Shown here: one piece after another, positions 2,967 through 33,830 of the stretch | How positions within the stretch are numbered: the first letter of the stretch is position 1 | Layout: each line of letters begins with the position of its first letter | Source of the DNA: a virus | Taxonomy: Duplodnaviria; Heunggongvirae; Uroviricota; Caudoviricetes | IMG/VR virus record: IMGVR_UViG_2740892219_000011 | DNA length: 33,830 nucleotides | Strand: one strand, 5' to 3' | Position numbers and translations under genes: made by a program | Notes under the pieces: model-generated | What the model saw: only the letters and a program-made list of their open reading frames with translations | What the model was told of the DNA's origin: nothing | The model's database searches: none

Positions 2967-3905
2967 ATGAATATTTCCGATATTCGCGCAGGACTGCGCA
3001 CGCTTGTAGAAAATGAAGAAACCACCTTTAAACAAATTGCTCTTGAGAGCGGACTTTCTACCGGAACTATCAGTAGTTTTATCAATGATAAGTACAACGG
3101 GGATAACGAGCGTGTTTCACAAATGCTGCAACGCTGGCTGGAAAAATATCATGCAGTTGCAGAACTACCTGAACCGCCCCGCTTTGTGGAAACGCAGACG
3201 GTAAAACAAATCTGGACAAGTATGCGTTTTGCCAGCCTGACTGAAAGTATTGCTGTTGTATGTGGCAATCCTGGTGTGGGCAAAACCGAAGCGGCCCGTG
3301 AATATCGCCGCACCAATAACAATGTCTGGATGATCACCATTACGCCATCCTGTGCCAGCGTTCTGGAATGTCTTACTGAACTGGCGTTTGAGCTGGGAAT
3401 GAATGACGCACCACGCCGTAAAGGGCCGCTCTCCCGCGCCCTGCGACGTCGCCTTGAAGGTACACAGGGGCTGGTTATCATCGACGAAGCTGATCATCTT
3501 GGTGCCGAAGTTCTGGAAGAACTCCGCCTGTTACAGGAATCAACCCGTATTGGCCTTGTGCTGATGGGAAATCACCGGGTTTATTCAAATATGACGGGGG
3601 GTAACAGAACGGTTGAATTTGCCCGTCTGTTTTCCCGTATTGCAAAGCGCACTGCAATTAATAAAACCAAAAAAGCCGATGTAAAAGCTATTGCGGATGC
3701 CTGGCAGATTAACGGCGAAAAAGAACTGGAGTTATTACAGCAGATTGCGCAGAAACCAGGTGCGCTTCGCATTCTGAATCATTCACTTCGCCTTGCCGCC
3801 ATGACGGCTCACGGTAAAGGTGAGCGTGTTAACGAAGATTATCTGCGTCAGGCTTTCCGTGAATTAGACCTGGACGTTGATATTTCAACGCTGCTGCGTA
3901 ATTAA
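2967..3905 (+). CDS. B: MuB ATP-dependent target DNA activator, 312 aa
   Basis: Walker A GNPGVGKT and Walker B LVIIDEADHL visible; size and position downstream of A match MuB. Confidence 0.9.
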   Translation: MNISDIRAGLRTLVENEETTFKQIALESGLSTGTISSFINDKYNGDNERVSQMLQRWLEKYHAVAELPEPPRFVETQTVKQIWTSMRFASLTESIAVVCGNPGVGKTEAAREYRRTNNNVWMITITPSCASVLECLTELAFELGMNDAPRRKGPLSRALRRRLEGTQGLVIIDEADHLGAEVLEELRLLQESTRIGLVLMGNHRVYSNMTGGNRTVEFARLFSRIAKRTAINKTKKADVKAIADAWQINGEKELELLQQIAQKPGALRILNHSLRLAAMTAHGKGERVNEDYLRQAFRELDLDVDISTLLRN

Positions 3906-3920
3906 GAAGGAGAAGAAATT

Positions 3921-4148
3921 ATGATGGCCCGAAATATAAAAATGGCAACGGATGCGCAGAACTGGTTACAGGCGCGCGGGAGTCATGTAAATGAATCATA
4001 TCTCGGCGTGGCGCGTCCGATTCTTGAAATCACTTACCCACCGGTGGAACTGGTAAAAAACGCGGTCAGAATTATGGAGCATAAGTCCGGGGTGGCCCGT
4101 TCTGTATGGACGGCCCGTCTTAATGGTTGCCAGATTATCTGGAGATAA
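3921..4148 (+). CDS. kil: Small early protein, Kil-like (host killing / cell-division inhibition), 75 aa
   Basis: First gene after B with RBS AAGGAGAAGAAATT; position and size match Mu kil as I recall. Function not verifiable from sequence alone. Confidence 0.6.
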
Positions 4149-7285: not shown

Positions 7286-7576
7286 ATGAATAATGAAACT
7301 AAATTTACGCCTAAAGACCTGGATGAAGAACTGGTGAAAGCTAAGATGCTTGAGCGTATGCGCGATGTTATTGAGACTGCAATCAGTAAAGGCTTTTCTG
7401 CGAGAGAGGCCCTTGAAATTATGACACGGGAAATTCATCTCATACGCGACGAAGTTTTGTTGCATAACAAAAAAGCCCACAACAATATTGTTTGTCGTGA
7501 GCTTGGCGTTGATGATTCAGCGGTTATTCCACAGCGTCAGTATCTGTGTGCTCTGATGAGAGGTTCCCGGCATTAA
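7286..7576 (+). CDS. Hypothetical early protein, about 96 aa
   Basis: ATG 7286 preceded by GAAGGTGA. Its 3' end overlaps the convergent minus-strand ORF by about 53 nt, so one of the two calls may be wrong. Confidence 0.45.
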   Translation: MNNETKFTPKDLDEELVKAKMLERMRDVIETAISKGFSAREALEIMTREIHLIRDEVLLHNKKAHNNIVCRELGVDDSAVIPQRQYLCALMRGSRH

Positions 7577-7883
7577 CAATATCCTGCCTTGAAGCCCAGA
7601 GCTTATTGAGCAGCAGATCAACATACTCATCGGCCTCAAAATCCAGTTCTTCGAACGTTTTTCGGTTCTTATAGCTGGCCTGTGTATTTCTGATGATGTC
7701 ATAAGCATCGTGCATGTTGATAACACCGTTTTCAATCAGCTTAATCATCAGATTACCGACCAGCATAAAACCGGTTATACCAAAGAATTTATCCTGGTTA
7801 TTAACAGGGGTGTCTTTCTGGTTTGTTTCGAAATCTGGGTTTTGTTCATCATCCGACACCGTATGTTGTTCTTGTTCAGCCAT
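7524..7883 (-). CDS. Reverse-oriented, highly acidic hypothetical protein, 119 aa
   Basis: Minus-strand ORF with RBS AAGGAAAT 5-7 nt upstream of its ATG. Hand count gives about 24 Asp/Glu versus about 9 Lys/Arg; composition is protein-like. It is the only clearly protein-like frame across 7577-7952 and sits in an AT-richer stretch. Confidence 0.55.
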   Translation of the reverse strand: MAEQEQHTVSDDEQNPDFETNQKDTPVNNQDKFFGITGFMLVGNLMIKLIENGVINMHDAYDIIRNTQASYKNRKTFEELDFEADEYVDLLLNKLWASRQDIVNAGNLSSEHTDTDAVE

Positions 7884-7952
7884 AATATTTCCTTTTATGT
7901 TATTACTGAATATGGCGGTGTTGCAGCACCGCCTCTTTCCGGAGGTACGATC

Positions 7953-8504: not shown

Positions 8505-8890
8505 CGGAAGATTTATTTGGTGATTTGCAGGATGACACCATCCTGGCACATCTTGACAATCCCGCAGAGGATACGTCACGCTTTCCGGCACTGCTGGCGG
8601 AGCTGAACGATTTACTACGCGGGGAATTGTCCCGACTGGGTGTTGATCCTGCCCATTCACTGGAGATTGTTGTGGCTATCTGTAAGCATCTGGGCGGCGG
8701 TCAGGTCTACATTCCACGCGGTCAGGTTCTGGACTCGCTGATTCGGGATTTGCGTATCTGGAATGATTTTAACGGTCGCAACGTCAGCGAACTGACCACC
8801 CGTTATGGTGTCACTTTCAATACGGTTTACAAGGCCATTCGCCGGATGCGACGGCTGAAATACCGCCAGTACCAGCCCTCACTTCTGTAA
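8501..8890 (+). CDS. mor: Mor middle-operon transcriptional activator, 129 aa
   Basis: Paralogous to the downstream C ORF (LGGGQVYIPRG / FNGRNVSELTTRYG versus LGGRQFYIPCG / FNGRNMEELRRQYR); last gene of the early operon, followed by a terminator. Confidence 0.9.
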   Translation: MTEDLFGDLQDDTILAHLDNPAEDTSRFPALLAELNDLLRGELSRLGVDPAHSLEIVVAICKHLGGGQVYIPRGQVLDSLIRDLRIWNDFNGRNVSELTTRYGVTFNTVYKAIRRMRRLKYRQYQPSLL

Positions 8891-8895
8891 ACAGT

Positions 8896-8920
8896 AAAGC
8901 CGGTTAATCCGGCTTTTTTT
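8896..8920 (+). terminator. Intrinsic terminator ending the early transcript
   Basis: Hairpin AAGCCGG-TTAAT-CCGGCTT followed by a 7-T run, immediately after the mor stop. Confidence 0.8.
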
Positions 8921-8967
8921 ACGTCCTCAATATCCTGTGATGAATAACCGTACCGGGGGAAATCATC

Positions 8968-9682: not shown

Positions 9683-10105
9683 ATGCAGCATGATTTATTT
9701 GAACACGATCCGGCAATTCGCCAGTTAATCGGACATATTGATAACATCCCGGCCCCGGAACTGGAATCACGCTGGCCCCGTTCGGTGGTTGATCTGATTG
9801 ATGTTCTGGAAAACGAACTGAAACGCCAGAACGTCAGCAATCCCCGTGAACTTGCCCGTAAACAGGCCGTTGCCCTGTCATGTTTTCTGGGTGGACGGCA
9901 GTTTTACATCCCCTGCGGCGATACGATCCTGACCGCGTTACGCGACGATTTGCTTTACTGCCAGTTTAATGGTCGTAACATGGAAGAACTGCGTCGCCAG
10001 TACCGCCTGTCCCAGCCGCAGATCTACCAGATTATTGCCCGCCAGAGAAAGCTGCATACACGACGTCATCAGCCTGATCTGTTCTCACCTGAAAGCCCAA
10101 AATAA
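9683..10105 (+). CDS. C: C late-gene transcriptional activator (Mor/C family), 140 aa
   Basis: Paralog of mor (shared C-terminal DNA-binding region); located just upstream of the lysis and late genes. Confidence 0.9.
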   Translation: MQHDLFEHDPAIRQLIGHIDNIPAPELESRWPRSVVDLIDVLENELKRQNVSNPRELARKQAVALSCFLGGRQFYIPCGDTILTALRDDLLYCQFNGRNMEELRRQYRLSQPQIYQIIARQRKLHTRRHQPDLFSPESPK

Positions 10106-10126
10106 CCGGCATCCTGCCGGTTATTT
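10104..10126 (+). terminator. Hairpin, probable terminator of the middle transcript
   Basis: AACCGGCA-TCC-TGCCGGTT stem-loop overlapping the C stop, followed by TTATTT (weak U-tract). Confidence 0.5.
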
Positions 10127-10196
10127 CCTGTCACCATAATCCCGCATCTGCCACCTGATTTTTTAGACTGCCATCAGAGCATTTTTTCAGGGAAGC
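10127..10196 (+). promoter_or_regulatory. Candidate C-dependent late promoter upstream of lys
   Basis: Contains CATAATCCCGC...TTTTTT at 10134-10165, similar to motifs upstream of I and of the tape-measure gene. Confidence 0.5.
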
Positions 10197-10715
10197 ATGA
10201 TGGCGGGGATACCAAAAAAACTGAAAGCCACACTGCTGGCTGTAACGATTGCCGGTGGCGGTGTGGGTGGTTATCAGGAAATGACCCGTCAGTCTCTGAT
10301 CCATCTGGAAAATATCGCTTATATGCCTTACCGCGATATTGCCGGTGTGCTTACGGTCTGTGTGGGACATACCGGGCCGGATATCGAAATGCGCCGTTAC
10401 AGCCATGCGGAGTGTATGGCTCTCCTCGACAGTGATTTAAAACCGGTTTATGCGGCAATCGATCGTCTTGTCAGGGTGCCGCTGACGCCATATCAGAAAA
10501 CGGCGCTGGCAACGTTTATTTTCAACACTGGTGTTACCGCATTCAGTAAATCAACGCTGCTGAAAAAACTCAATGCCGGTGATTACGCCGGAGCGCGTGA
10601 CCAGATGGCCCGCTGGGTGTTTGCCGCAGGCCATAAATGGAAAGGACTGATGAACCGTCGCGAAGTGGAAATGGCAATCTGGAATATCAGGGGGGCGGAT
10701 GACCTTCGCAAGTAA
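10197..10715 (+). CDS. lys: Endolysin, T4-lysozyme-like with N-terminal signal-anchor-release (SAR) domain, 172 aa
   Basis: Catalytic spacing E-8aa-D-5aa-T in ENIAYMPYRDIAGVLT; N-terminal weakly hydrophobic Gly/Ala-rich segment KATLLAVTIAGGGVGG typical of SAR endolysins. Confidence 0.85.
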   Translation: MMAGIPKKLKATLLAVTIAGGGVGGYQEMTRQSLIHLENIAYMPYRDIAGVLTVCVGHTGPDIEMRRYSHAECMALLDSDLKPVYAAIDRLVRVPLTPYQKTALATFIFNTGVTAFSKSTLLKKLNAGDYAGARDQMARWVFAAGHKWKGLMNRREVEMAIWNIRGADDLRK

Positions 10716-17579: not shown

Positions 17580-17775
17580 ACTGAATCAGACATGAAATCA
17601 GCCGCACAGATTTTTTAAAACGCGCCACGGGATTTTTAAACCGGTATTTAACGGTGTATGAATCCCGTTTTATCTTCCTTCCACTTTCTTTCTCCATTAC
17701 TCAAATAGCATAACCCCAGATTTTCCCGCACCTCCCGCAAACTGACTGCTCACAAACCATGATGAGCAGCAGGAC
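17580..17775 (+). promoter_or_regulatory. Long G-I intergenic region: candidate C-dependent late promoter and possible central strong gyrase site
   Basis: 196-bp non-coding gap in an otherwise tightly packed operon; contains CATAACCCCAGATTTTCCCGC at 17709-17729; lies roughly at the genome centre. Confidence 0.5.
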
Positions 17776-18861
17776 ATGAAAAAACACGCGATTGGCATTG
17801 CCGCACTGAGTGCGCTGTCCATTGACGATGACGGCTGGTGCCAGCTATTGCCTGCCGGTCATTTCAGTGCCCGTGATGGTCGTCCGTTTGATGTGACAGA
17901 CGGTCAGGGGTGGTTCATCGACGGTGAGATTGCCGGGCGTCTGGTTGAAGGCGTTCGCGCGCTCAACCAGGACGTGCTGATTGATTACGAGCATAACCAG
18001 CTACGTAAGGACAAAGGATTACCCCCGGAACAACTCGTCGCGGCTGGCTGGTTTAACGCCGATGAAATGCAGTGGCGTGAAGGTGAAGGGTTATTTATCC
18101 ACCCACGCTGGACGGCGGCGGCCCAGCAGCGCATCGATGACGGCGAATTTGGTTATCTCTCTGCGGTTTTTCCGTATGACACCGCCACCGGTGCAGTGCT
18201 GCAAATCCGCCTTGCTGCGCTGACCAATGACCCCGGTGCCACCGGCATGAAAAAGCTGACCGCACTGGCGGCAGACCTTCCCAACATCCTTCAACAGGAG
18301 AACAAACCCATGAATGAAACGCTGCGCAAGCTGCTTGCGCGTCTTGGGGTGACGGTCCCCGAAAATGCAGACATCACCGATGAACAGGCCAGCGCGGCCC
18401 TGAGTGCGCTTGATGCGCTCGAAACAGATGCCGGAAAAGTGGCGGCGTTGTCTGCCGAACTGGAAAAGGCACAGAAAGCCGCCGTTGACCTGACGAAATA
18501 CGTCCCGGTGGAAAGCTACAACGCCCTGCGTGATGAACTGGCACAGGCGACTGCACAAAGCGCCACAGCAAGCCTGAGCGCCGTTCTGGACAAGGCGGAA
18601 CAGGAAGGCCGCATTTTCAAAAGCGAACGTACCTATCTGGAACAGCTTGGCGGTCAGATTGGCGTGGCGGCACTGTCGGCACAGCTTGAGAAAAAACAGC
18701 CTATCGCTGCGTTATCTGCCATGCAGACCACCACAGCGAAAATCCCGTCGCAGGAAAAAACGGCGGTGGCGGTGCTGTCTGCTGATGAACAGGCAGCAGT
18801 GAAGGCGCTCGGCATTACAGAGGCTGAGTATCTGAAAATGAAACAGGAACAAGAAAAATGA
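17776..18861 (+). CDS. I: Head maturation protease / scaffold fusion protein, 361 aa
   Basis: Position between G and the major capsid gene; Ala/Gln/Glu-rich helical C-terminal half typical of scaffold domains. Confidence 0.85.
   Translation: MKKHAIGIAALSALSIDDDGWCQLLPAGHFSARDGRPFDVTDGQGWFIDGEIAGRLVEGVRALNQDVLIDYEHNQLRKDKGLPPEQLVAAGWFNADEMQWREGEGLFIHPRWTAAAQQRIDDGEFGYLSAVFPYDTATGAVLQIRLAALTNDPGATGMKKLTALAADLPNILQQENKPMNETLRKLLARLGVTVPENADITDEQASAALSALDALETDAGKVAALSAELEKAQKAAVDLTKYVPVESYNALRDELAQATAQSATASLSAVLDKAEQEGRIFKSERTYLEQLGGQIGVAALSAQLEKKQPIAALSAMQTTTAKIPSQEKTAVAVLSADEQAAVKALGITEAEYLKMKQEQEK
18310..18861 (+). CDS. Z: Candidate nested scaffold protein from an in-frame internal start within I
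   Basis: Internal ATG at 18310 preceded by AGGAGAA with suitable spacing; Mu is known to express Z from within I. Start not verified. Confidence 0.4.
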   Translation: MNETLRKLLARLGVTVPENADITDEQASAALSALDALETDAGKVAALSAELEKAQKAAVDLTKYVPVESYNALRDELAQATAQSATASLSAVLDKAEQEGRIFKSERTYLEQLGGQIGVAALSAQLEKKQPIAALSAMQTTTAKIPSQEKTAVAVLSADEQAAVKALGITEAEYLKMKQEQEK

Positions 18862-23271: not shown

Positions 23272-23706
23272 ATGGACGAAATGAATTTAGGTCCTGAAGC
23301 ACAGGAACTGCATGACAGCATTGTGGCAGAAATTCAGTCCGGCGTGCTGAAACTGAAAGACGGCCTGCCGTTCGGCACCGGTGACGAGACTGAAATGCAG
23401 TATGACGTGACACTGCGTGAACTGACCGCAGGCGATATGATTGATGCACAGGCGGCTGCTGAAAAGCTGGTAATGAGCAAGGAAGGTCCGGTGCTGGTCA
23501 GTTCCCCGTCCCGGATGGGACTGGAAATGCTGCGCCGACAGATTGCCAGCGTGGGCTGCATCAAAGGCCCGTTGTCGATGGCGCTGATTCGTAAGCTGTC
23601 TGTCGATGACTTCCAGCGTCTGTCGCTGGCCACAGAAATGTACGACATGGCTGTGGCGGCATCGCTGACGCAAGAACGGGGGCGAGTGGCTGCGGTGCCG
23701 GAATGA
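23272..23706 (+). CDS. Y: Tail assembly chaperone (tape-measure chaperone), 144 aa
   Basis: Acidic protein located between the tube and tape-measure genes; an alternate frame is open from near its 3' end to the tape-measure start. Confidence 0.75.
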   Translation: MDEMNLGPEAQELHDSIVAEIQSGVLKLKDGLPFGTGDETEMQYDVTLRELTAGDMIDAQAAAEKLVMSKEGPVLVSSPSRMGLEMLRRQIASVGCIKGPLSMALIRKLSVDDFQRLSLATEMYDMAVAASLTQERGRVAAVPE

Positions 23707-23850
23707 TATTGAGAAAGCGGCGACAGCGATTGGCGTTATTCTGAAAAGTGGCCCGGAATGGGCCTTATCCCTTCCGCTGTCCCGCTTTTTCCGGCACTGC
23801 CAGCAGGCTAAAACCCTCTCTCAATATCACCGTTAAATCAGGAAATCTCT
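23707..23850 (+). promoter_or_regulatory. Y/tape-measure gap: candidate late promoter motif and candidate frameshift-extension region
   Basis: Contains CTTATCCC...TCCCGCTTTTT at 23764-23790; the +1 frame relative to Y is open across the whole gap. Confidence 0.4.
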
Positions 23851-25923
23851 ATGACCGGGAAACGCTTAAAGGCGTCTGTCATTATTGATCTTAATGGCAA
23901 TCTTTCCCGGCGTTCCCGCCAGTATTCGAACCAGATAAACGCCCTGTCCCGTAGCGGACAAAGTTCCCTTCGTGCCCTGCGTATGGAGGTTGTGCGCGTT
24001 TCTGGTGCCATTGACAGAATGGGTTCTCTGTCAACCCGTACATTCCGAATGCTGTCAGCCGGGGCGCTGGGTATCGCTGGCGTGGGTTACACCGCCAATA
24101 AACTGTTTATTGGTGCAGCCGCCCAGCGTGAGCAGCAGATCATCGCCATGAACTCGCTGTATCACGGCGATAAGGTCAGAGCGCAGGCCATGATGGCCTG
24201 GGCGAAGCAGAACGCGAAGGACACCACGTGGGGGCTGAGTGGTGTTCTTGATGAGATCCGTTCGTCGAAAGGCTTCGGCATGACGGATGAACAGACGAAA
24301 CAGTTCATCACCATGTTGCAGGATCAGGGGGCCATGCACGGCTGGGATTTACCAACTGCACAGGGTGCCTCACTGCAACTGAAACAGATGTTTGCCCGCC
24401 AGCAAATCACAGCGGCGGATGCCAACCTGCTGACCGGTTACGGTATTAACGTTTACCAGACGCTGGCGGATGCACTGGGTAAAGACGTTAAGGATATCCG
24501 CAAACAAGGTGAAAAAGGCAAGCTGGGTCTGAAATCCATTCTGACGGTATTCAGAACGCTGTCAGAACAGTCAAAAGGTGCACAGGCCAGTGCGATGAAC
24601 TCCTGGGACGGGATGTTCGCCCAGATGGAAGCTAACCTGCTTGAATTTCGCATAAAGGTGGCAAACAGCGGCCCCTTTGAAGAAATCAAGAACGAGATGC
24701 GCCGGGTGCTTAACTGGCACGACATGGCGGATAAATCCGGGGAACTTGACGCACTGGCAGAAAACATTGGTCAGAAATTTCTGACCACGTTCAGAACGGT
24801 AAAAATCGCGGCGCAGGAATTATGGCGCTGGCTGAAACCGGGTAAAGATGCGCTGGCATGGGTTGACCAGAATATTGTCAGCCTGAAAAAACTGGCTGCT
24901 GTTCTGGTGTCTGTCTGGCTTGCCAATAAAGCCCTGAGAGCAGGCTGGGCCGTGGCAAAACCCTCATGGCAGGTTGCCAGTTATCCGTTTAAAACCGGGC
25001 GTCGTATGTGGCGCTGGATGCGAAACCGCAAACGTGGGCAGGCAGGTCTGCCGGTCCCGGATGCCATGACGTCTGAGACGCTGTTGCAGGGTATCGGCAT
25101 TCAGCGTGTGTTTGTCATCAACTGGCCCCGTGGATTTGGTGGCTACGGGAGTGGCGGCGGTCGTCGCGGACGGAGCGGCGGAAGAATGGCCCCGCTGTTA
25201 CCCCGCCAGCCGTTATTGCTGTCCGGGCCACAGCCGCTGGCATTACCTGCACCACGCCCTGTACTGGCATTACCCCCACCCGGCGTACCGGTAACAGCAC
25301 GGCCTGCACCATTACCTTTACCCGGTAAATCCGGTCTTCTGAGCAGGCTTGCAGGCAGTGCTGCCGGGCAACTGGTTACGGGAACGGTCGGAAAGCTGGC
25401 TGATGCCGGGCGTGCTGTTGGCGGGTGGTTTTCCGGTATCGGAAACAAACTTGCAGGCAGTGCGATCGGTCGGGTTGTGACAAAAGGTGCCGGGGCGCTG
25501 GGCTGGATGGGGAAAGGTGCCGGTCGTGCGTTGTCACGTCTGGGTGGCCCGGTAATGGGGGCACTCCAGCTTGCCCCCGTCCTGATGGATGAGCAGGCGT
25601 CAACCCATGAAAAAGCAGGTGCAATTGGCAGTACAGCCGGTGCATGGCTCGGCGGTGCCGTTGGCAGCCTTGCCGGACCGCTGGGTACGGTTGCCGGTGC
25701 CACGCTGGGCAGTGTCGCCGGGGAGTATCTGGGCGGTTTTGTAACCGACCTGTATCAGAAATGGACGGCCCCGGATAAGGAACCGCAGGAACAAAAAGTG
25801 AATGCGGAAGCCTCGCTGCGCGTCGAACTTGGCGAGGGGTTACGTCTGGCCAGTTCCCGTGTCACCGAGGATGGTATGGGGCTGAATATTTACGCGGGCG
25901 ATAACTACATTACAGGCTGGTAA
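23851..25923 (+). CDS. Tail tape measure protein, 690 aa
   Basis: Largest tail ORF, downstream of sheath/tube/chaperone; helical N-terminal part and a Gly/Pro/Ala-rich low-complexity C-terminal third. Confidence 0.85.
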
Positions 25924-25927
25924 AACC

Positions 25928-27415
25928 ATGTTTGAAGATGCTTTAAATGCCGTTAATGCTGTCCGGGATAAAATCAGCGGTGGTAAGAAAACAACCGGCA
26001 AAGGCACGTTCCGTAACGTGCCGTTTCTCGTCATCGAGGAGCAAAAACAGGCTGGCGGACGTCGCCTGGTTAAACGCGAGTACCCGTTACGTGATACCGG
26101 CGGCGTCAATGACCTGGGGAAAAAGCTTCGCTCCCGTACATTCAGCGCCTGCATTCTGAACAGCAACGCAGAAACAGCCAGAGATGAAGCGGGTGCGCTG
26201 ATGGATGCTCTTGATGCTCCGGGTAGCGGTGAGCTGGTACATCCTGATTTCGGCACTGTGGACGTCATGGTGGATTCATGGGAATGCCGCACTAAAGCGG
26301 ATGAACTGAATTATTACGCGTTCACCGTTACCGTTTATCCGTCGTTGCAGGATACTGCCCCGGACGCAGAGACAGACACCAGTGCAGCCGTACCTGCACA
26401 GGCCGTTGCTGTAACCGGTTCTCTGGGAGATACGCTGTCCTCTGTCTGGCAAACCGTAAAAGATGGCACTGCGGCGGCAACCGCCGTGATGGAAGCTGTA
26501 ACCGGTGTCATCGATGATATCAGTGATGCGGTGGACAATCTGGGGGTTACGCAGACTGTCAGCGGTCTGATGGGATCGCTTTCTGCGATGAAAGGCTCTG
26601 TGACCAGCCTGATTAACCAGCCTGCCATGCTGGCCTCCTCGCTGATGGGGGCGCTGTCCGGCGTTTCATCGTTATGCGATACCCGGACAGCATTTTCCAC
26701 ATGGAACCGTCTGGCGCAGCGATTCGAACCTCGCCATGCCGCCACCGCAGGCAGACAGGGGACAATCACAACCTCGTACAACAGTCCGGTTGCAGAAAAA
26801 AATATTGCCACACTGAACTACGTCATGCTGGCAGCGGCGCAGACATACCGGGCAGAAGCTGCCAGTCAGGCACTGACTGCGGCACTGGATTTCAGTCGCC
26901 GGATGGATAATGCCGCCCGTGCACCTGTACTGGATGCCCCGTCCACCACAACCGGCACAGCCAGCGGGGCCAGCAGCACATCTGCTACTGTCACACAGGG
27001 ACAGTTACAGTTAACTGCCATAACCCCGGACGGCGGCTTTTCACAGGTATCCTTTTCAGACAGTGGTACAGCCACGCCCCCGGTATTTGAAAGTGTGTCC
27101 GATATCGGAAAAACAGCCGCCATGCTGGGGGCTGCACTGGATACCGTCATTCTGACGGCATCTGAGCAGGGCTTTTCGACAGACAGCGTTCAGCTTACGC
27201 AACTGCGTCTGCTGGTTGTTGCCGACCTGGAAAAACGCGGGCTGCAACTGGCGGGCAGTGAAACGCACCGCCTGCCGGAGACGATGCCTGCAATGGTGGC
27301 CCTGTACCGTTACACAGGAAACAGCCGGAACTGGCAACGGCTGGCCCGCAGGAACGGTATCAGCAACCCGTTGTTTGTTCCCGGTGGCGTCAGTATTGAG
27401 GTGATTAATGAGTAA
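25928..27415 (+). CDS. N: DNA circularization protein N-like tail protein, 495 aa
   Basis: Position after the tape measure; size consistent with Mu N as I recall. Confidence 0.65.
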
Positions 27416-28547
27416 TACCGTCACGCTGCGAACGGATGGCAGGCTTTTTACCGGCTGGACGTCAGTCTCTGTCACCCGCTCGATTGAATCCGTAGCCGGA
27501 TATTTTGAGCTGGGGGTGAACGTGCCACCGGGCACGGATTTATCCGGGCTGGCACCGGGGAAGAAGTTCACGCTCGAAATCGAGGGGCAGATTGTCTGCA
27601 CCGGTTATATCGATTCACGGCGACGCCAGATGACCGCTGACAGTATGAAAATCACTGTCGCCGGACGTGACAAAACGGCTGACCTGATTGACTGTGCTGC
27701 CGTTTACAGTGGCGGGCAGTGGAAAAACCGCACACTGGAACAGATTGCGCGTGACCTGTGCGCTCCTTATGGCGTTACCGTTCGCTGGGAGCTTTCCGAT
27801 AAGGAAAGTTCGGCAGCTTTTCCCGGCTTCACGCTGGACCATTCAGAAACCGTTTATGAGGCGCTGGTGCGTGCCTCCCGCGCACGCGGTGTACTGATGA
27901 CCAGCAATGCCGCAGGAGAGCTGGTATTCAGCCGGGCTGCCAGCACAGCCACTGATGAGCTGGTTCTCGGAGAAAATCTGCTGACACTGGATTTTGAGGA
28001 AGACTTCCGCGACCGGTTCAGCGAATACACCGTCAAGGGGTATGCCCGCGCAAACGGTGCTGAGGGTGATGATATTGATGCGAAAAGTATCGTCTCCCGG
28101 AAAGGGACCGCCACTGACAGTAATGTGACCCGTTACAGACCGATGATCATCATTGCCGACAGCAAAATTACGGCGAAGGATGCACAGGCCCGCGCCCTGC
28201 GTGAGCAACGCCGCAGACTGGCAAAATCCATCACCTTTGAGGCAGAAATTGACGGATGGACACGCAAGGACGGGCAACTCTGGATGCCGAACCTGCTGGT
28301 CACTATTGATGCATCGAAATATGCCATCAAAACCACAGAATTACTGGTCAGCAAAGTCACCCTGATACTGAATGACCAGGACGGGCTGAAAACCCGCGTC
28401 AGCCTTGCACCACGCGAAGGCTTTCTGGTGCCGGTTGAAAGCGACCGTAAAAACAGGAAAGGCGACGACAGTAACGGCGGTATTGATGCGCTGGTTGAAG
28501 ATTATTATCGCAGACACCCGGAGAAAACGCCGCCGTGGAAAGAGTAA
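27408..28547 (+). CDS. P: Baseplate hub protein, 379 aa
   Basis: Order and size in the Mu baseplate cluster. Confidence 0.65.
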
Positions 28548-31178: not shown

Positions 31179-32299
31179 TGTTTTATATTGATAACGACAG
31201 CGGCGTAACCGTCATGCCGCCCGTATCCGCCCAGCGTAGTGCTATCGTTCGCTGGTTTTCAGAAGGTGACGGGAATAATGTTATCACATGGCCCGGCATG
31301 GACTGGTTTAATATTGTGCAGGCGGAGTTATTAAACACGCTGGAAGAAGCCGGTATTCAACCGGATAAAACAAAATTAAACCAGCTTGCACTGTCCATTA
31401 AAGCCATTATGAGCAATAACGCGCTGCTGATAAAAAATAACCTCAGCGAAATTAAAACTGCCGGGGCATCAGCACAGCGTACAGCACGTGAAAATCTGGA
31501 TATCTGGGATGCCAGCCTGAACAAAAAAGGACTCGTTCAGCTAACCAGTGCCACTGACAGCCCCAGTGAAACGCTGGCAGCCACCGCAAAAGCGGTGAAA
31601 ATTGCGATGGATAAAAACCTCGGTTTACAGGAAACTGTAAAATTAGCTTCGGAAGCGTTATCAACATATGGCGGGGTGGTTAACGGTGATGTGATTATCA
31701 AGGGCATTCTCTCGTTAATTGGGAATGAATTACTTATTGAAAAAGATAATGGCTTTTCTGGTATTCACATCAGAAACAAGAGCACGGTTGCAGGAAGTGC
31801 AAATGGAGTCGATTTCTCATTTGGCGGAGCGATTATGTCATCGCTCATTTGCGGAATAATGGAAAATGGCGCGAACTACATAGATGTTGCATTGTCTCCG
31901 GCAGGCAATATTTCTGACCGCCGCAAGGTTGCATTTACTTTGGATGGAAATATCAGGCAGTTAATTCCCCAGAATGGATGGAGCATTCAGGGGTATACAA
32001 AAAACAGTGATTTTACCCAGGCGATGGCCGATGCTGGCTGGGTACGTTTTCCAAATGGCATCATTTTTCAATGGTGTTGGGGAAATACTGATGCCAGTGG
32101 CTGGGCATCTGCCCCGTTTCCTGTTGGTTGGCCTGTTCGTTGCTTTGGTTTGTTAGCCTGTAACGTTGCTGGTGACTCGATAGCAAGTGCAATTGCGGGT
32201 GTTAAAAGATTAAATGATCGCGATATGCAGGTCACGTTAATGGAAAGGTCTGGGGTTGCTGTTTCTAAACCATTCTTCTGTATTGGTGTGGGGTGTTAA
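31178..32299 (+). CDS. S: Tail fibre protein S, with constant part and G-segment variable part, 373 aa
   Basis: Followed by a tail-fibre assembly gene and by inverted U'-S' on the minus strand; a gix-like recombination site lies inside the ORF. Confidence 0.8.
   Translation: MFYIDNDSGVTVMPPVSAQRSAIVRWFSEGDGNNVITWPGMDWFNIVQAELLNTLEEAGIQPDKTKLNQLALSIKAIMSNNALLIKNNLSEIKTAGASAQRTARENLDIWDASLNKKGLVQLTSATDSPSETLAATAKAVKIAMDKNLGLQETVKLASEALSTYGGVVNGDVIIKGILSLIGNELLIEKDNGFSGIHIRNKSTVAGSANGVDFSFGGAIMSSLICGIMENGANYIDVALSPAGNISDRRKVAFTLDGNIRQLIPQNGWSIQGYTKNSDFTQAMADAGWVRFPNGIIFQWCWGNTDASGWASAPFPVGWPVRCFGLLACNVAGDSIASAIAGVKRLNDRDMQVTLMERSGVAVSKPFFCIGVGC
31609..31634. other. gix-like DNA-invertase crossover site (left boundary of the invertible G segment) inside S
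   Basis: Reverse complement reads TTCCTGTAAACCGAGGTTTTTATCC, closely resembling the Gin/Hin recombination site consensus as I recall it. Confidence 0.6.
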
Positions 32300-32301
32300 T
32301 C

Positions 32302-32778
32302 ATGTCCAGTAAAATATTCTATAGTGCCAGGAATAATACGTTTTTCTTTGAATCCATGAAACCGGACTATGAAAAATCAGGCGCATGGCCTGACGATTTG
32401 GTGGCAGTCACAAACGATATGTATGAAGAGTTTACGGGAAGACCGCCAGAGGGAAAAAAGAGAGGCCGTGATGAATCTGGTTTCCCTACATGGATTGATG
32501 TATCAGAACCAACAACAGAGCAGTTAATCGCATTAAAAGAGCAGAAGAAAAAGGATTTAGCCGAGATTGCGAACACAGAAATTGCCTGGCGGCAGGATGC
32601 TGTTGACGCAGGGATGGCGACAGAAGCAGAAATCACTGTACTGGCTGAATGGAAAAAATATCGTGTGCTGCTTATGCGTATTGATACATCAACCGCGACG
32701 GATATTGAGTGGCCCGCTGTTCCAGACGAACAAAGCGGCAAAGAGAGCAGCGCAGAGGATGTGAAAACGACGCTATAA
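32302..32778 (+). CDS. U: Tail fibre assembly protein, 158 aa
   Basis: ATG 32302 just after the S stop (the track ORF begins at GTG 32293); small acidic protein downstream of the fibre gene. Confidence 0.75.
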   Translation: MSSKIFYSARNNTFFFESMKPDYEKSGAWPDDLVAVTNDMYEEFTGRPPEGKKRGRDESGFPTWIDVSEPTTEQLIALKEQKKKDLAEIANTEIAWRQDAVDAGMATEAEITVLAEWKKYRVLLMRIDTSTATDIEWPAVPDEQSGKESSAEDVKTTL

Positions 32779-32882
32779 TACCAGCACAATTATTATCATT
32801 TTTGTTATTTTGTATTTCCTTGCTTTCCGCAGTCATGTGGATATGGAAAAGCCTGGATGGCCACAAAAGCCTGAGTAAAATT

Positions 32883-32902
32883 AAGGCCCGATAACGGGCC
32901 TT
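32883..32902. terminator. Hairpin between convergent U and U' (probable terminator)
   Basis: AAGGCCCG-ATAA-CGGGCCTT perfect stem immediately 3' of the U' stop on the minus strand, flanked by A/T runs. Confidence 0.55.
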
Positions 32903-32904
32903 TC

Positions 32905-33438
32905 TCATTCTGGTTGTTCGGGGAATGTTACCGGCAGGCTGGAGGTGTCTGTGGATTCGACTTTCTGCGCATAGAGCATCCACTCGGTTAATTTCTGTTT
33001 ATTCTCATCGGAAATGATGCCCAGCCGTAGCTGTGAGTCCCATAGCTGGGTTTTATCCCTGACAAGTTGCAACAGGCTTTGTTTTTCATTCTCTGCCTGC
33101 TGCCTCTGCTCTTCCCCGGTATAAGTTCGCTTTATCACCGCACCATCTTTGAACATCCATTTACCCGAAATATCAGCCCGGCGATTTGCTGTAATATCAG
33201 GTAATTCAACGACGCTTGCGCCTTCTGGATTAATTGCTGAAACATCCTTTTCAATACAAATAATAACGCCGTTATGGTCATAGACCATTTTCAACGTATC
33301 AGACTGGAAATTCTTTTGTTCCTCATACCAGTTTTTTCCATCCTCTGTATAAAGCCATTTGATGTTAAATTGCTTTGTTAGCTGATATTGCTCTTTTGTT
33401 TTAGGATTGCCAGCAGTAATGTTTTTTAAGTGCATCAT
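32905..33438 (-). CDS. U': Alternative tail fibre assembly protein, 177 aa
   Basis: Minus-strand ORF inside the G segment, typical Tfa-like protein, convergent with U. Confidence 0.8.
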   Translation of the reverse strand: MMHLKNITAGNPKTKEQYQLTKQFNIKWLYTEDGKNWYEEQKNFQSDTLKMVYDHNGVIICIEKDVSAINPEGASVVELPDITANRRADISGKWMFKDGAVIKRTYTGEEQRQQAENEKQSLLQLVRDKTQLWDSQLRLGIISDENKQKLTEWMLYAQKVESTDTSSLPVTFPEQPE

Positions 33439-33440
33439 CG

Positions 33441-33830
33441 TTAAATACTCCCCGCGTTATACCACGTCCCATTAATGCAATACTGAATTGGCCTTGCCTG
33501 AGTTGTATCAATTAATTCGTCACGGTTTCCGTTAACTGAACCTGTAACGACATAACCTGACTTATCAGACCAACCAGGCCCATTCCATGTTTGAACAGAT
33601 GACAGTCCTCCTAAACGGACACCTGTAATAAATCGTGAATTACATTCCGCTTTAGTATATGCACCAACATCTCCTGCTGAAGGTTTTCTGGTGGTGGTGT
33701 AAAATTCGGACCAGTCGGCTTCAAAACCATAACCATCACGGGCTGAACGATAAAAGATACCGCCGTTCTTATAATTCACGCGGAACTGTACTGCCGGACA
33801 ACTACCCGTATTCATATTGAAATGAAGAAT
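33441..33830 (-). CDS. S': Alternative tail fibre variable C-terminal part, partial; 5' end lies beyond the window
   Basis: Minus-strand ORF ending at 33441; the frame stays open to the window edge. Gly/Asn/Thr-rich receptor-binding-like C-terminus, unrelated to the C-terminus of S. Confidence 0.7.
   Translation of the reverse strand: MLHFNMNTGSCPAVQFRVNYKNGGIFYRSARDGYGFEADWSEFYTTTRKPSAGDVGAYTKAECNSRFITGVRLGGLSSVQTWNGPGWSDKSGYVVTGSVNGNRDELIDTTQARPIQYCINGTWYNAGSI

Follow-up and report, generated by a model that had tools for sequence, protein, structure and literature searches.

Genome context and features of the window

The window, which is the whole stretch of 33,830 nucleotides that was analysed, is closely related to known Mu-like phages. 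Its positions 1-31614 (31.6 kb) are 99.98% identical to Escherichia virus Mu_3F6, and the 1.2 kb around the elements under study share 100% identity with Mu_3F6 and 98.8% with phage Mu. Judged by these alignments, the window is a Muvirus, namely a bacteriophage Mu genome of Mu_3F6 type with about 98% identity to Mu. An earlier note on this DNA had correctly recognised a Mu-type phage with C-activated late promoters. From gene C to gene P, the Mu coordinate equals the window coordinate plus 280. The last 2.2 kb (31614-33830) match positions 34959-32743 of the Mu_3F6 record LR595867.1 in reverse, with 99.95% identity, and hence the invertible G segment is opposite in orientation to that in the record. 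The window ends within G, and gin, com, mom, and the promoter Pmom therefore lie beyond it. A segment at 7309-7913 is without counterpart in the Mu reference. It hosts a reverse-strand open reading frame of 119 residues (7524-7883), which matches PHROG 38610 (function unknown) with an E-value of 8e-83, is hypothetical in Mu_3F6, and gave no match in Pfam; it may be an accessory gene of the semi-essential early region.

The genes and regulatory features discussed below are collected in Table 1. Gene identities were checked by Pfam, and C, lys, I, gp41, the tape-measure gene, N, and P all fall in the expected families. The C gene is intact, and the cognate activator is encoded in the same genome as its boxes; at the protein level, C has 99.3% identity to its Mu counterpart and 100% to that of D108. 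The middle promoter Pm is located at 8883-8953 and is identical to that of Mu.

Phage Mu has four late transcription units, which are lys, I, P, and mom (PMC4461284, PMC2582627, PMC12867686). Its late promoters, four in number, have -10 hexamers but no -35 hexamers (PMC2582627). The C site, an imperfect dyad of 16 bp, has its centre at -43.5, and Plys needs bases -52 to -34 (PMC2582627). The consensus of the C site is given as TTAT-N5-6-ATAA (PMC12867686). S1 mapping and footprints, together with in vitro transcription, established C binding and C-dependent starts in Mu (PMC4461284, PMC2582627). The Mu transcript starts and footprint limits used here were taken from these two papers and from GenBank annotation.

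Table 1. Genes, promoters, and other features of the late region, in window coordinates
Feature	Coordinates	Strand	Basis
Gene C, late-gene activator, 140 aa, Mor/C family	9683..10105	+	Pfam PF08765 Mor, E 9e-34; orthologue Mu_21
Middle-transcript terminator hairpin	10100..10126	+	-16.1 kcal/mol, z -6.9; annotated Mu terminator 10383-10406
Plys, C-dependent late promoter	10123..10189	+	65/67 identical to Mu 10403-10469; exact motif match
lys, endolysin, first gene of lys transcript	10197..10715	+	Pfam Phage_lysozyme, E 1e-37; orthologue Mu_22
Terminator-like hairpin between G and I, upstream of PI	17627..17668	+	-19.8 kcal/mol, z -3.7; Mu terminator 17908-17953
PI, C-dependent late promoter	17697..17763	+	66/67 identical to Mu 17977-18043; exact motif match
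Gene I, head protease/scaffold	17776..18861	+	Pfam Mu-like_Pro, E 1e-97
Tail assembly chaperone gp41	zero frame 23272-23706; -2 extension about 23681-23836	+	Pfam Gp41_Mu, E 9e-35, and Phage_TAC_7; Mu_56 annotation
Site 3, coding, not a C box	23764..23790	+	-2 frame codons A-L-S-L-P-L-S-R-F-F
Tape-measure gene (gp42/Y)	23851..25923	+	Pfam TMP_3; orthologue Mu_42
PP, C-dependent late promoter inside gene N	27007..27073	+	67/67 identical to Mu 27287-27353; exact motif match
Gene P, baseplate hub, first full gene of P transcript	27408..28547	+	Pfam GpP-like and Gp44-like domains

Plys, PI, and PP share a box at a fixed distance from the -10 hexamer

The earlier note had described related elements in three regions, at 10134-10165 (site 1, upstream of lys), 17709-17729 (site 2, upstream of I), and 23764-23790 (site 3, upstream of the tape-measure gene), and had taken them for C-activated late promoters. 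The three strings that it quoted are all found in the sequence at the coordinates given, exactly for sites 2 and 3 and with a shift of one base for site 1, where CATAA begins at 10135 and not at 10134. The Mu record AF083977 has late promoters at 10403-10469, 17977-18043, 27287-27353, and 35693-35759, citing PMID 2522923. Sites 1 and 2 are the orthologues of the first two, Plys and PI, which are known Mu promoters and have been in the literature since 1989. The third promoter within the window is PP, and the fourth, Pmom, is located outside the window, at 35633 in Mu_3F6.

In Plys, the box core CATAATCCC spans 10135-10143, a T6 run spans 10159-10164, and the -10 hexamer TAGACT occupies 10164-10169, which would place the transcript start near 10176. 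PI has the box core CATAACCCC at 17709-17717 and the -10 hexamer CAAACT at 17738-17743. PP has the same core at 27019-27027 and TATCCT at 27048-27053, and its box lies 389 nt upstream of gene P. The -10 hexamers are TAnnnT-like, and each of the four, TAAGAT in Pmom included, starts exactly 29 nt past the first base of the 9-mer box. The boxes of Plys, PI, and PP show no variation among six Muvirus genomes. No full sigma-70 consensus promoter was called at any of the sites, which fits promoters that depend on an activator and have no -35 hexamer.

Compared with Mu, Plys has two single-base differences, one at 10147 and the other near +1, and PI has one at its upstream edge. Position 10147 is in the Plys spacer and is T in the window and Mu_3F6, and C in Mu, D108, SfMu, and YpM_3. 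This change falls within TCCCGCACCT, a 10-mer common to Mu Plys and PI. A 10-bp match between lys and I is mentioned in PMC4461284, and we take it to be TCCCGCACCT; the TCCCGC common to sites 1 and 2 probably belongs to that match. Upstream of Plys, the 3' arm and U-tract of the middle-transcript terminator hairpin overlap the upstream edge of the C site. The hairpin upstream of PI is followed by UUUUAUCUU.

The shared 9-mer, CATAAYCCC, is the right half of the C binding site together with the adjacent downstream bases; in the general form of the box, the half-site ATAA is flanked by YC(C/A)C. Searched on both strands, it occurs three times in the 33.8 kb against 0.53 expected, with first bases at 10135, 17709, and 27019 and all on the + strand. 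When one mismatch is allowed, the count rises to 14 against 13.5 expected, and none of these matches is at site 3. The composite pattern ATAAYC-N22-YANNNT, which adds the spacing, matches three times in the window against 0.68 expected, at the same three promoters; in Mu it finds the four known promoters plus one extra site. In the form (C/A)ATAAYC-N22-YANNNT, and with the + strand only, it returns exactly the four promoters in each of Mu_3F6, D108, SfMu, and YpM_3. Pmom is thus among the matches in Mu_3F6. A 50-column weight matrix trained on the four promoters is overfitted and serves only as a leave-one-out ranking argument, in which the true promoters rank 3, 11, and 42, whereas the highest-scoring position around site 3 comes 143rd to 1,283rd of 67,562.

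We considered whether the whole recurrence, sites 1 and 2 included, might be a chance match of short C-rich strings. The 9-mer is short and has one degenerate position, and two of 100 shuffles also contained three matches. Against this, the three matches all lie on the coding strand with the same spacing to a -10 hexamer, and they coincide with annotated Mu late promoters whose starts were mapped by S1 nuclease according to the cited literature. The boxes are also invariant in Muvirus and co-vary at orthologous positions in diverged relatives (see below). With S1 mapping, footprinting, and mutagenesis of Plys published (PMC2582627 and its references), chance is refuted for sites 1 and 2, and its probability is close to nil.

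The left half-sites of Plys, PI, and PP fit the published TTAT-N5-6-ATAA poorly, and none of the three promoters is recovered by a strict search. We thus define the box by the right half and the spacing, and the strict consensus was rejected as a detector because these left half-sites are degenerate. The strict search gave five matches, at 3079, 4072, 4135, 9239, and 31407, none of which is at a known promoter, as compared with 0.48 in shuffles and about 1.2 from local 4-mer frequencies. Several other palindromic 4-mers are enriched to a similar degree. The five matches are conserved in Mu and are not orthologous in the diverged loci L027 and L030. Most of them fall in the AT-rich regions at the two ends of the window, and chance probably accounts for the five. 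One of them, TTATCTGGAGATAA at 4135-4148, spans the kil stop and the E5 start, with TATATT 24 nt downstream. That this perfect TTAT-N6-ATAA dyad is an unrecognised fifth C target is much less likely.

The site upstream of the tape-measure gene is coding

The gp41 stop (23706) and the tape-measure start (23851) are 144 nt apart, and site 3 lies in the stretch between them. Simple ORF calling leaves this stretch as a gap, and CTTATCCC and TCCCGCTTTTT precede the tape-measure ATG by about 60-85 nt, an arrangement that could be read as a third C-activated promoter driving the tape-measure gene as a late transcription unit of its own. The 144 nt are, however, coding in the -2 frame. In AF083977, the tail assembly chaperone is annotated with a -2 frameshift product, recorded as verified (PMID 15469818), and this product maps to 23272-23836, so that the apparent gap is the frameshift extension. 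In the window, no stop interrupts the -2 frame up to 23836, 14 nt short of the tape-measure start, and 10 relatives keep the frame open too. The zero and -2 frames overlap at 23681-23706, where the G-run CGGGGGCGA is located at about 23684-23692, just upstream of the stop codon at 23704-23706. This overlap is presumably the place of the annotated -2 frameshift. The gene order M, gp41, Y is retained in all relatives. The description of all three regions as non-coding was thus mistaken for site 3.

The promoter elements of Plys and PI do not recur at site 3. Its best box, CTTATCCCT, departs from the 9-mer at three bases, and 1,256 positions of the window match it at that level; GGCACT stands where the -10 hexamer would belong, with no -10 hexamer at the right spacing. 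TCCCGC, which is present in Plys and PI as well and would therefore seem to speak for a third member, occurs 25 times in the window against 22 expected, that is, at chance frequency. There is no terminator upstream of site 3, nor any unusual structure at the site. Mu has other bases at window positions 23767, 23770, and 23773, which are all synonymous third-codon positions and all inside CTTATCCC. This string is CTTGTCTC in Mu and CTTGTCCC in SfMu and YpM_3. The motif bases are TTGTCT in Mu and TTGTCC in SfMu and YpM_3, and the TTATCCC of the window varies synonymously among relatives, even within Muvirus. Finally, AF083977 has no promoter at the orthologue of site 3, and published work recognises only four late promoters, none of them here (PMC12867686, PMC2582627). 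Taken with the position of the box in diverged relatives (see below), these observations make a promoter at site 3 very improbable.

A second reading is that site 3 and the neighbouring GGCCCGGAATGGGCC hairpin form an RNA element, such as a processing site or one that stimulates the -2 frameshift, and that this element underlies the DNA conservation. In relatives, 101-112 of 132 nt are identical here while the surrounding proteins share only about 55-60% amino acid identity, and a small hairpin can be drawn. The fold is unremarkable, however, with -15.8 kcal/mol and a z-score of -0.8, and 44 of 200 shuffles are as stable. The hairpin also lies at least about 58 nt downstream of the G-run at 23686-23692, which is too distant for a classical stimulator. 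Variation is mainly at third codon positions: the variable columns of the -2 frame number 1/0/6 at the first, second, and third positions among five Muvirus genomes, and 15/6/26 when six diverged relatives are added. What stays conserved is the peptide, GPEWALSLPLSR(F/L)FRHC, which is kept in those same relatives. We hence regard the RNA element as highly unlikely. Site 3 is predicted to encode the -2 extension of the tail assembly chaperone, with no promoter there.

The proposal of the earlier note therefore holds in part. Sites 1 and 2 resemble each other beyond chance and are Plys and PI orthologues, whereas site 3 fails in box, -10 hexamer, and coding status and is a false positive in coding sequence. 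The true third member of the set, at 27019-27027, belongs to PP, the real third promoter, which was missed. The three late units that had been put forward, starting at lys, I, and the tape-measure gene, do not stand as a set, as the third one in the window starts from PP inside gene N.

Box variation in diverged Mu-like relatives

C proteins in the phage collection have either at least 99% or less than 40% identity, with no intermediates. Intermediates came from IMG/VR, with C at 66-67% identity in L027-L029 and at 54% in L030 and L031. IMG/VR also provided seven syntenic G-I-T...L-M-gp41-Y-N-P loci with 45-75% amino acid identity, six of which were used in the box comparison. The lineage-specific box and the L073 sheath protein led to these diverged relatives; a search with the N protein yielded nothing more distant than relatives of 93-100% identity. 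The locus L073 (6883-8706 of IMGVR_UViG_2576861418_000006) is from the contig that also gave L028. There, a deletion has taken out the last part of the tape-measure gene, N, the PP region, and the beginning of P, and has joined roughly the first 426 residues of the tape-measure protein to a C-terminal portion of P. L073 was therefore of no use for PP, and it is likely a defective prophage.

The relatives use boxes of their own. The box is CAGATACCGGAATCCCC in L027/L108 and L029/L113, CAGATACCGGAATCACC in L109-L111 and L114, and CGTAATAAaCCCA in L112. In L030, the box after gene C is CATACCATAATCCCC, and the Mu type is kept. Across six prophages, the lineage boxes can be written as ACCGGAATCnC or CGTAATAAnCCC; that of the L027-type promoter is ACCGGAATCCCC, as compared with CATAAYCCC in Mu. 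In terms of half-sites, Mu has ATAAYC, one lineage has GGAATC in the near-palindrome GATACCGGAATC, and another has TAATAAnCCC. The boxes are positioned at 9449-9466 in L027, at 6153 and 15542 in L108, and at the equivalent places in L109-L113. The contigs of L027 and L029 contain the same 17-mer after gene C as well.

We scanned the PI-position 18-mer of each of the six relatives over its locus of about 20 kb on both strands. In six of six, gene N contains the best non-self match, which is on the + strand and 390-402 nt ahead of the P start, a position that corresponds to PP and marks its predicted orthologue. At the PP-like sites a clean TAnnnT follows the half-site by 22 nt, and at the PI-like sites an A-rich near-match takes its place; Mu has this geometry too. 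Lineages with full coverage show the switched box at each of the three positions, namely behind gene C, in the G-I interval, and within N. The six diverged relatives scanned have none of their own lineage's boxes before the tape-measure gene, and those with a GGAATC or TAATAA box carry it inside N instead. Co-variation of the box over orthologous late-promoter positions is an independent confirmation of Plys, PI, and PP, and it excludes site 3. A search for the motif over the window and its relatives, which the earlier note had suggested as a check, thus bore out Plys and PI and found the PP position in place of the tape-measure site.

A candidate for a GGAATC-type box was inspected beside site 3, where GGCCCGGAATGGGCC contains the 7-mer CCGGAAT. 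It was rejected, as the 7-mer is followed by G and not C and has no TAnnnT 22 nt downstream. The 7-mer is also present in Mu-type genomes with the ATAA box, where it encodes G-P-E-W.

The C proteins of the L027 lineage differ in the helix-turn-helix region by M100L, E102T, Q106E, Y107H, P112T, and Q116D. Gln116 of C was reported as a DNA-contact residue. L030 C has S110G, Q116K, and R120Q, yet its box is still of the Mu type, which argues against a simple recognition code. That the C box of uncultivated Mu-like prophages switched as a set together with changes in the recognition helix of C (e.g. Q116D), and so represents a natural swap of activator and promoter specificity, is in our estimate as probable as its opposite.

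Discussion

The window is very probably a Mu_3F6-type Mu genome in which Plys, PI, and PP are C-dependent promoters, sites 1 and 2 are C boxes, and site 3 is a chance resemblance without a promoter role. According to the literature on Mu, Mor would activate Pm to give the middle transcript encoding C, and C would then occupy its site ahead of the -10 region in each of Plys, PI, PP, and Pmom. Binding would be by a dimer, or by a tetramer according to the cryo-EM model, with its centre near -43.5, and open-complex formation by sigma-70 RNA polymerase would follow. In the cryo-EM complex on Pmom, C is a tetramer (bioRxiv 10.1101/2025.05.02.651988). The expected outcome is that the lysis/terminase/portal, head/tail, and baseplate/fibre transcripts are switched on, and the tape-measure gene would be read within the I transcript.

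Sites 1 and 2 and the box at 27019 are late promoters of Mu as described in 2015 (PMC4461284), with 65-67 of 67 bases identical and the same genes, order, box, and -10 spacing; the proposed third site is not among the Mu promoters, and Pmom is outside the window. The paralogous Pm/Mor system of Mu resembles the C promoters in having a dyad activator site, a missing -35 hexamer, and sigma-70 RNA polymerase. It differs from the late promoters in its activator (Mor is 38% identical to C), its box, and its timing, and it was outside the earlier set of motifs. At the tail locus, gp41 is like the frameshifted chaperones of the lambda G/GT type in being located between the tail tube and tape-measure genes and in overlapping an open frame. 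Its predicted frameshift does not differ from the -2 type of Mu gp41 (AF083977, PMID 15469818).

The resulting late transcription map would have starts at about 10176 (lys), about 17750 (I), and, within N, about 27060 (P); the mom unit lies beyond the window. No transcription unit begins at the tape-measure gene, and for Mu itself the map is nothing scientifically new. In the annotation, the frameshift extension of the chaperone should fill the apparent gap ahead of the tape-measure gene. The lineage-specific box switch accompanied by C substitutions may not have been described previously, and, if it is true, it could help to explain DNA recognition by the Mor/C family.
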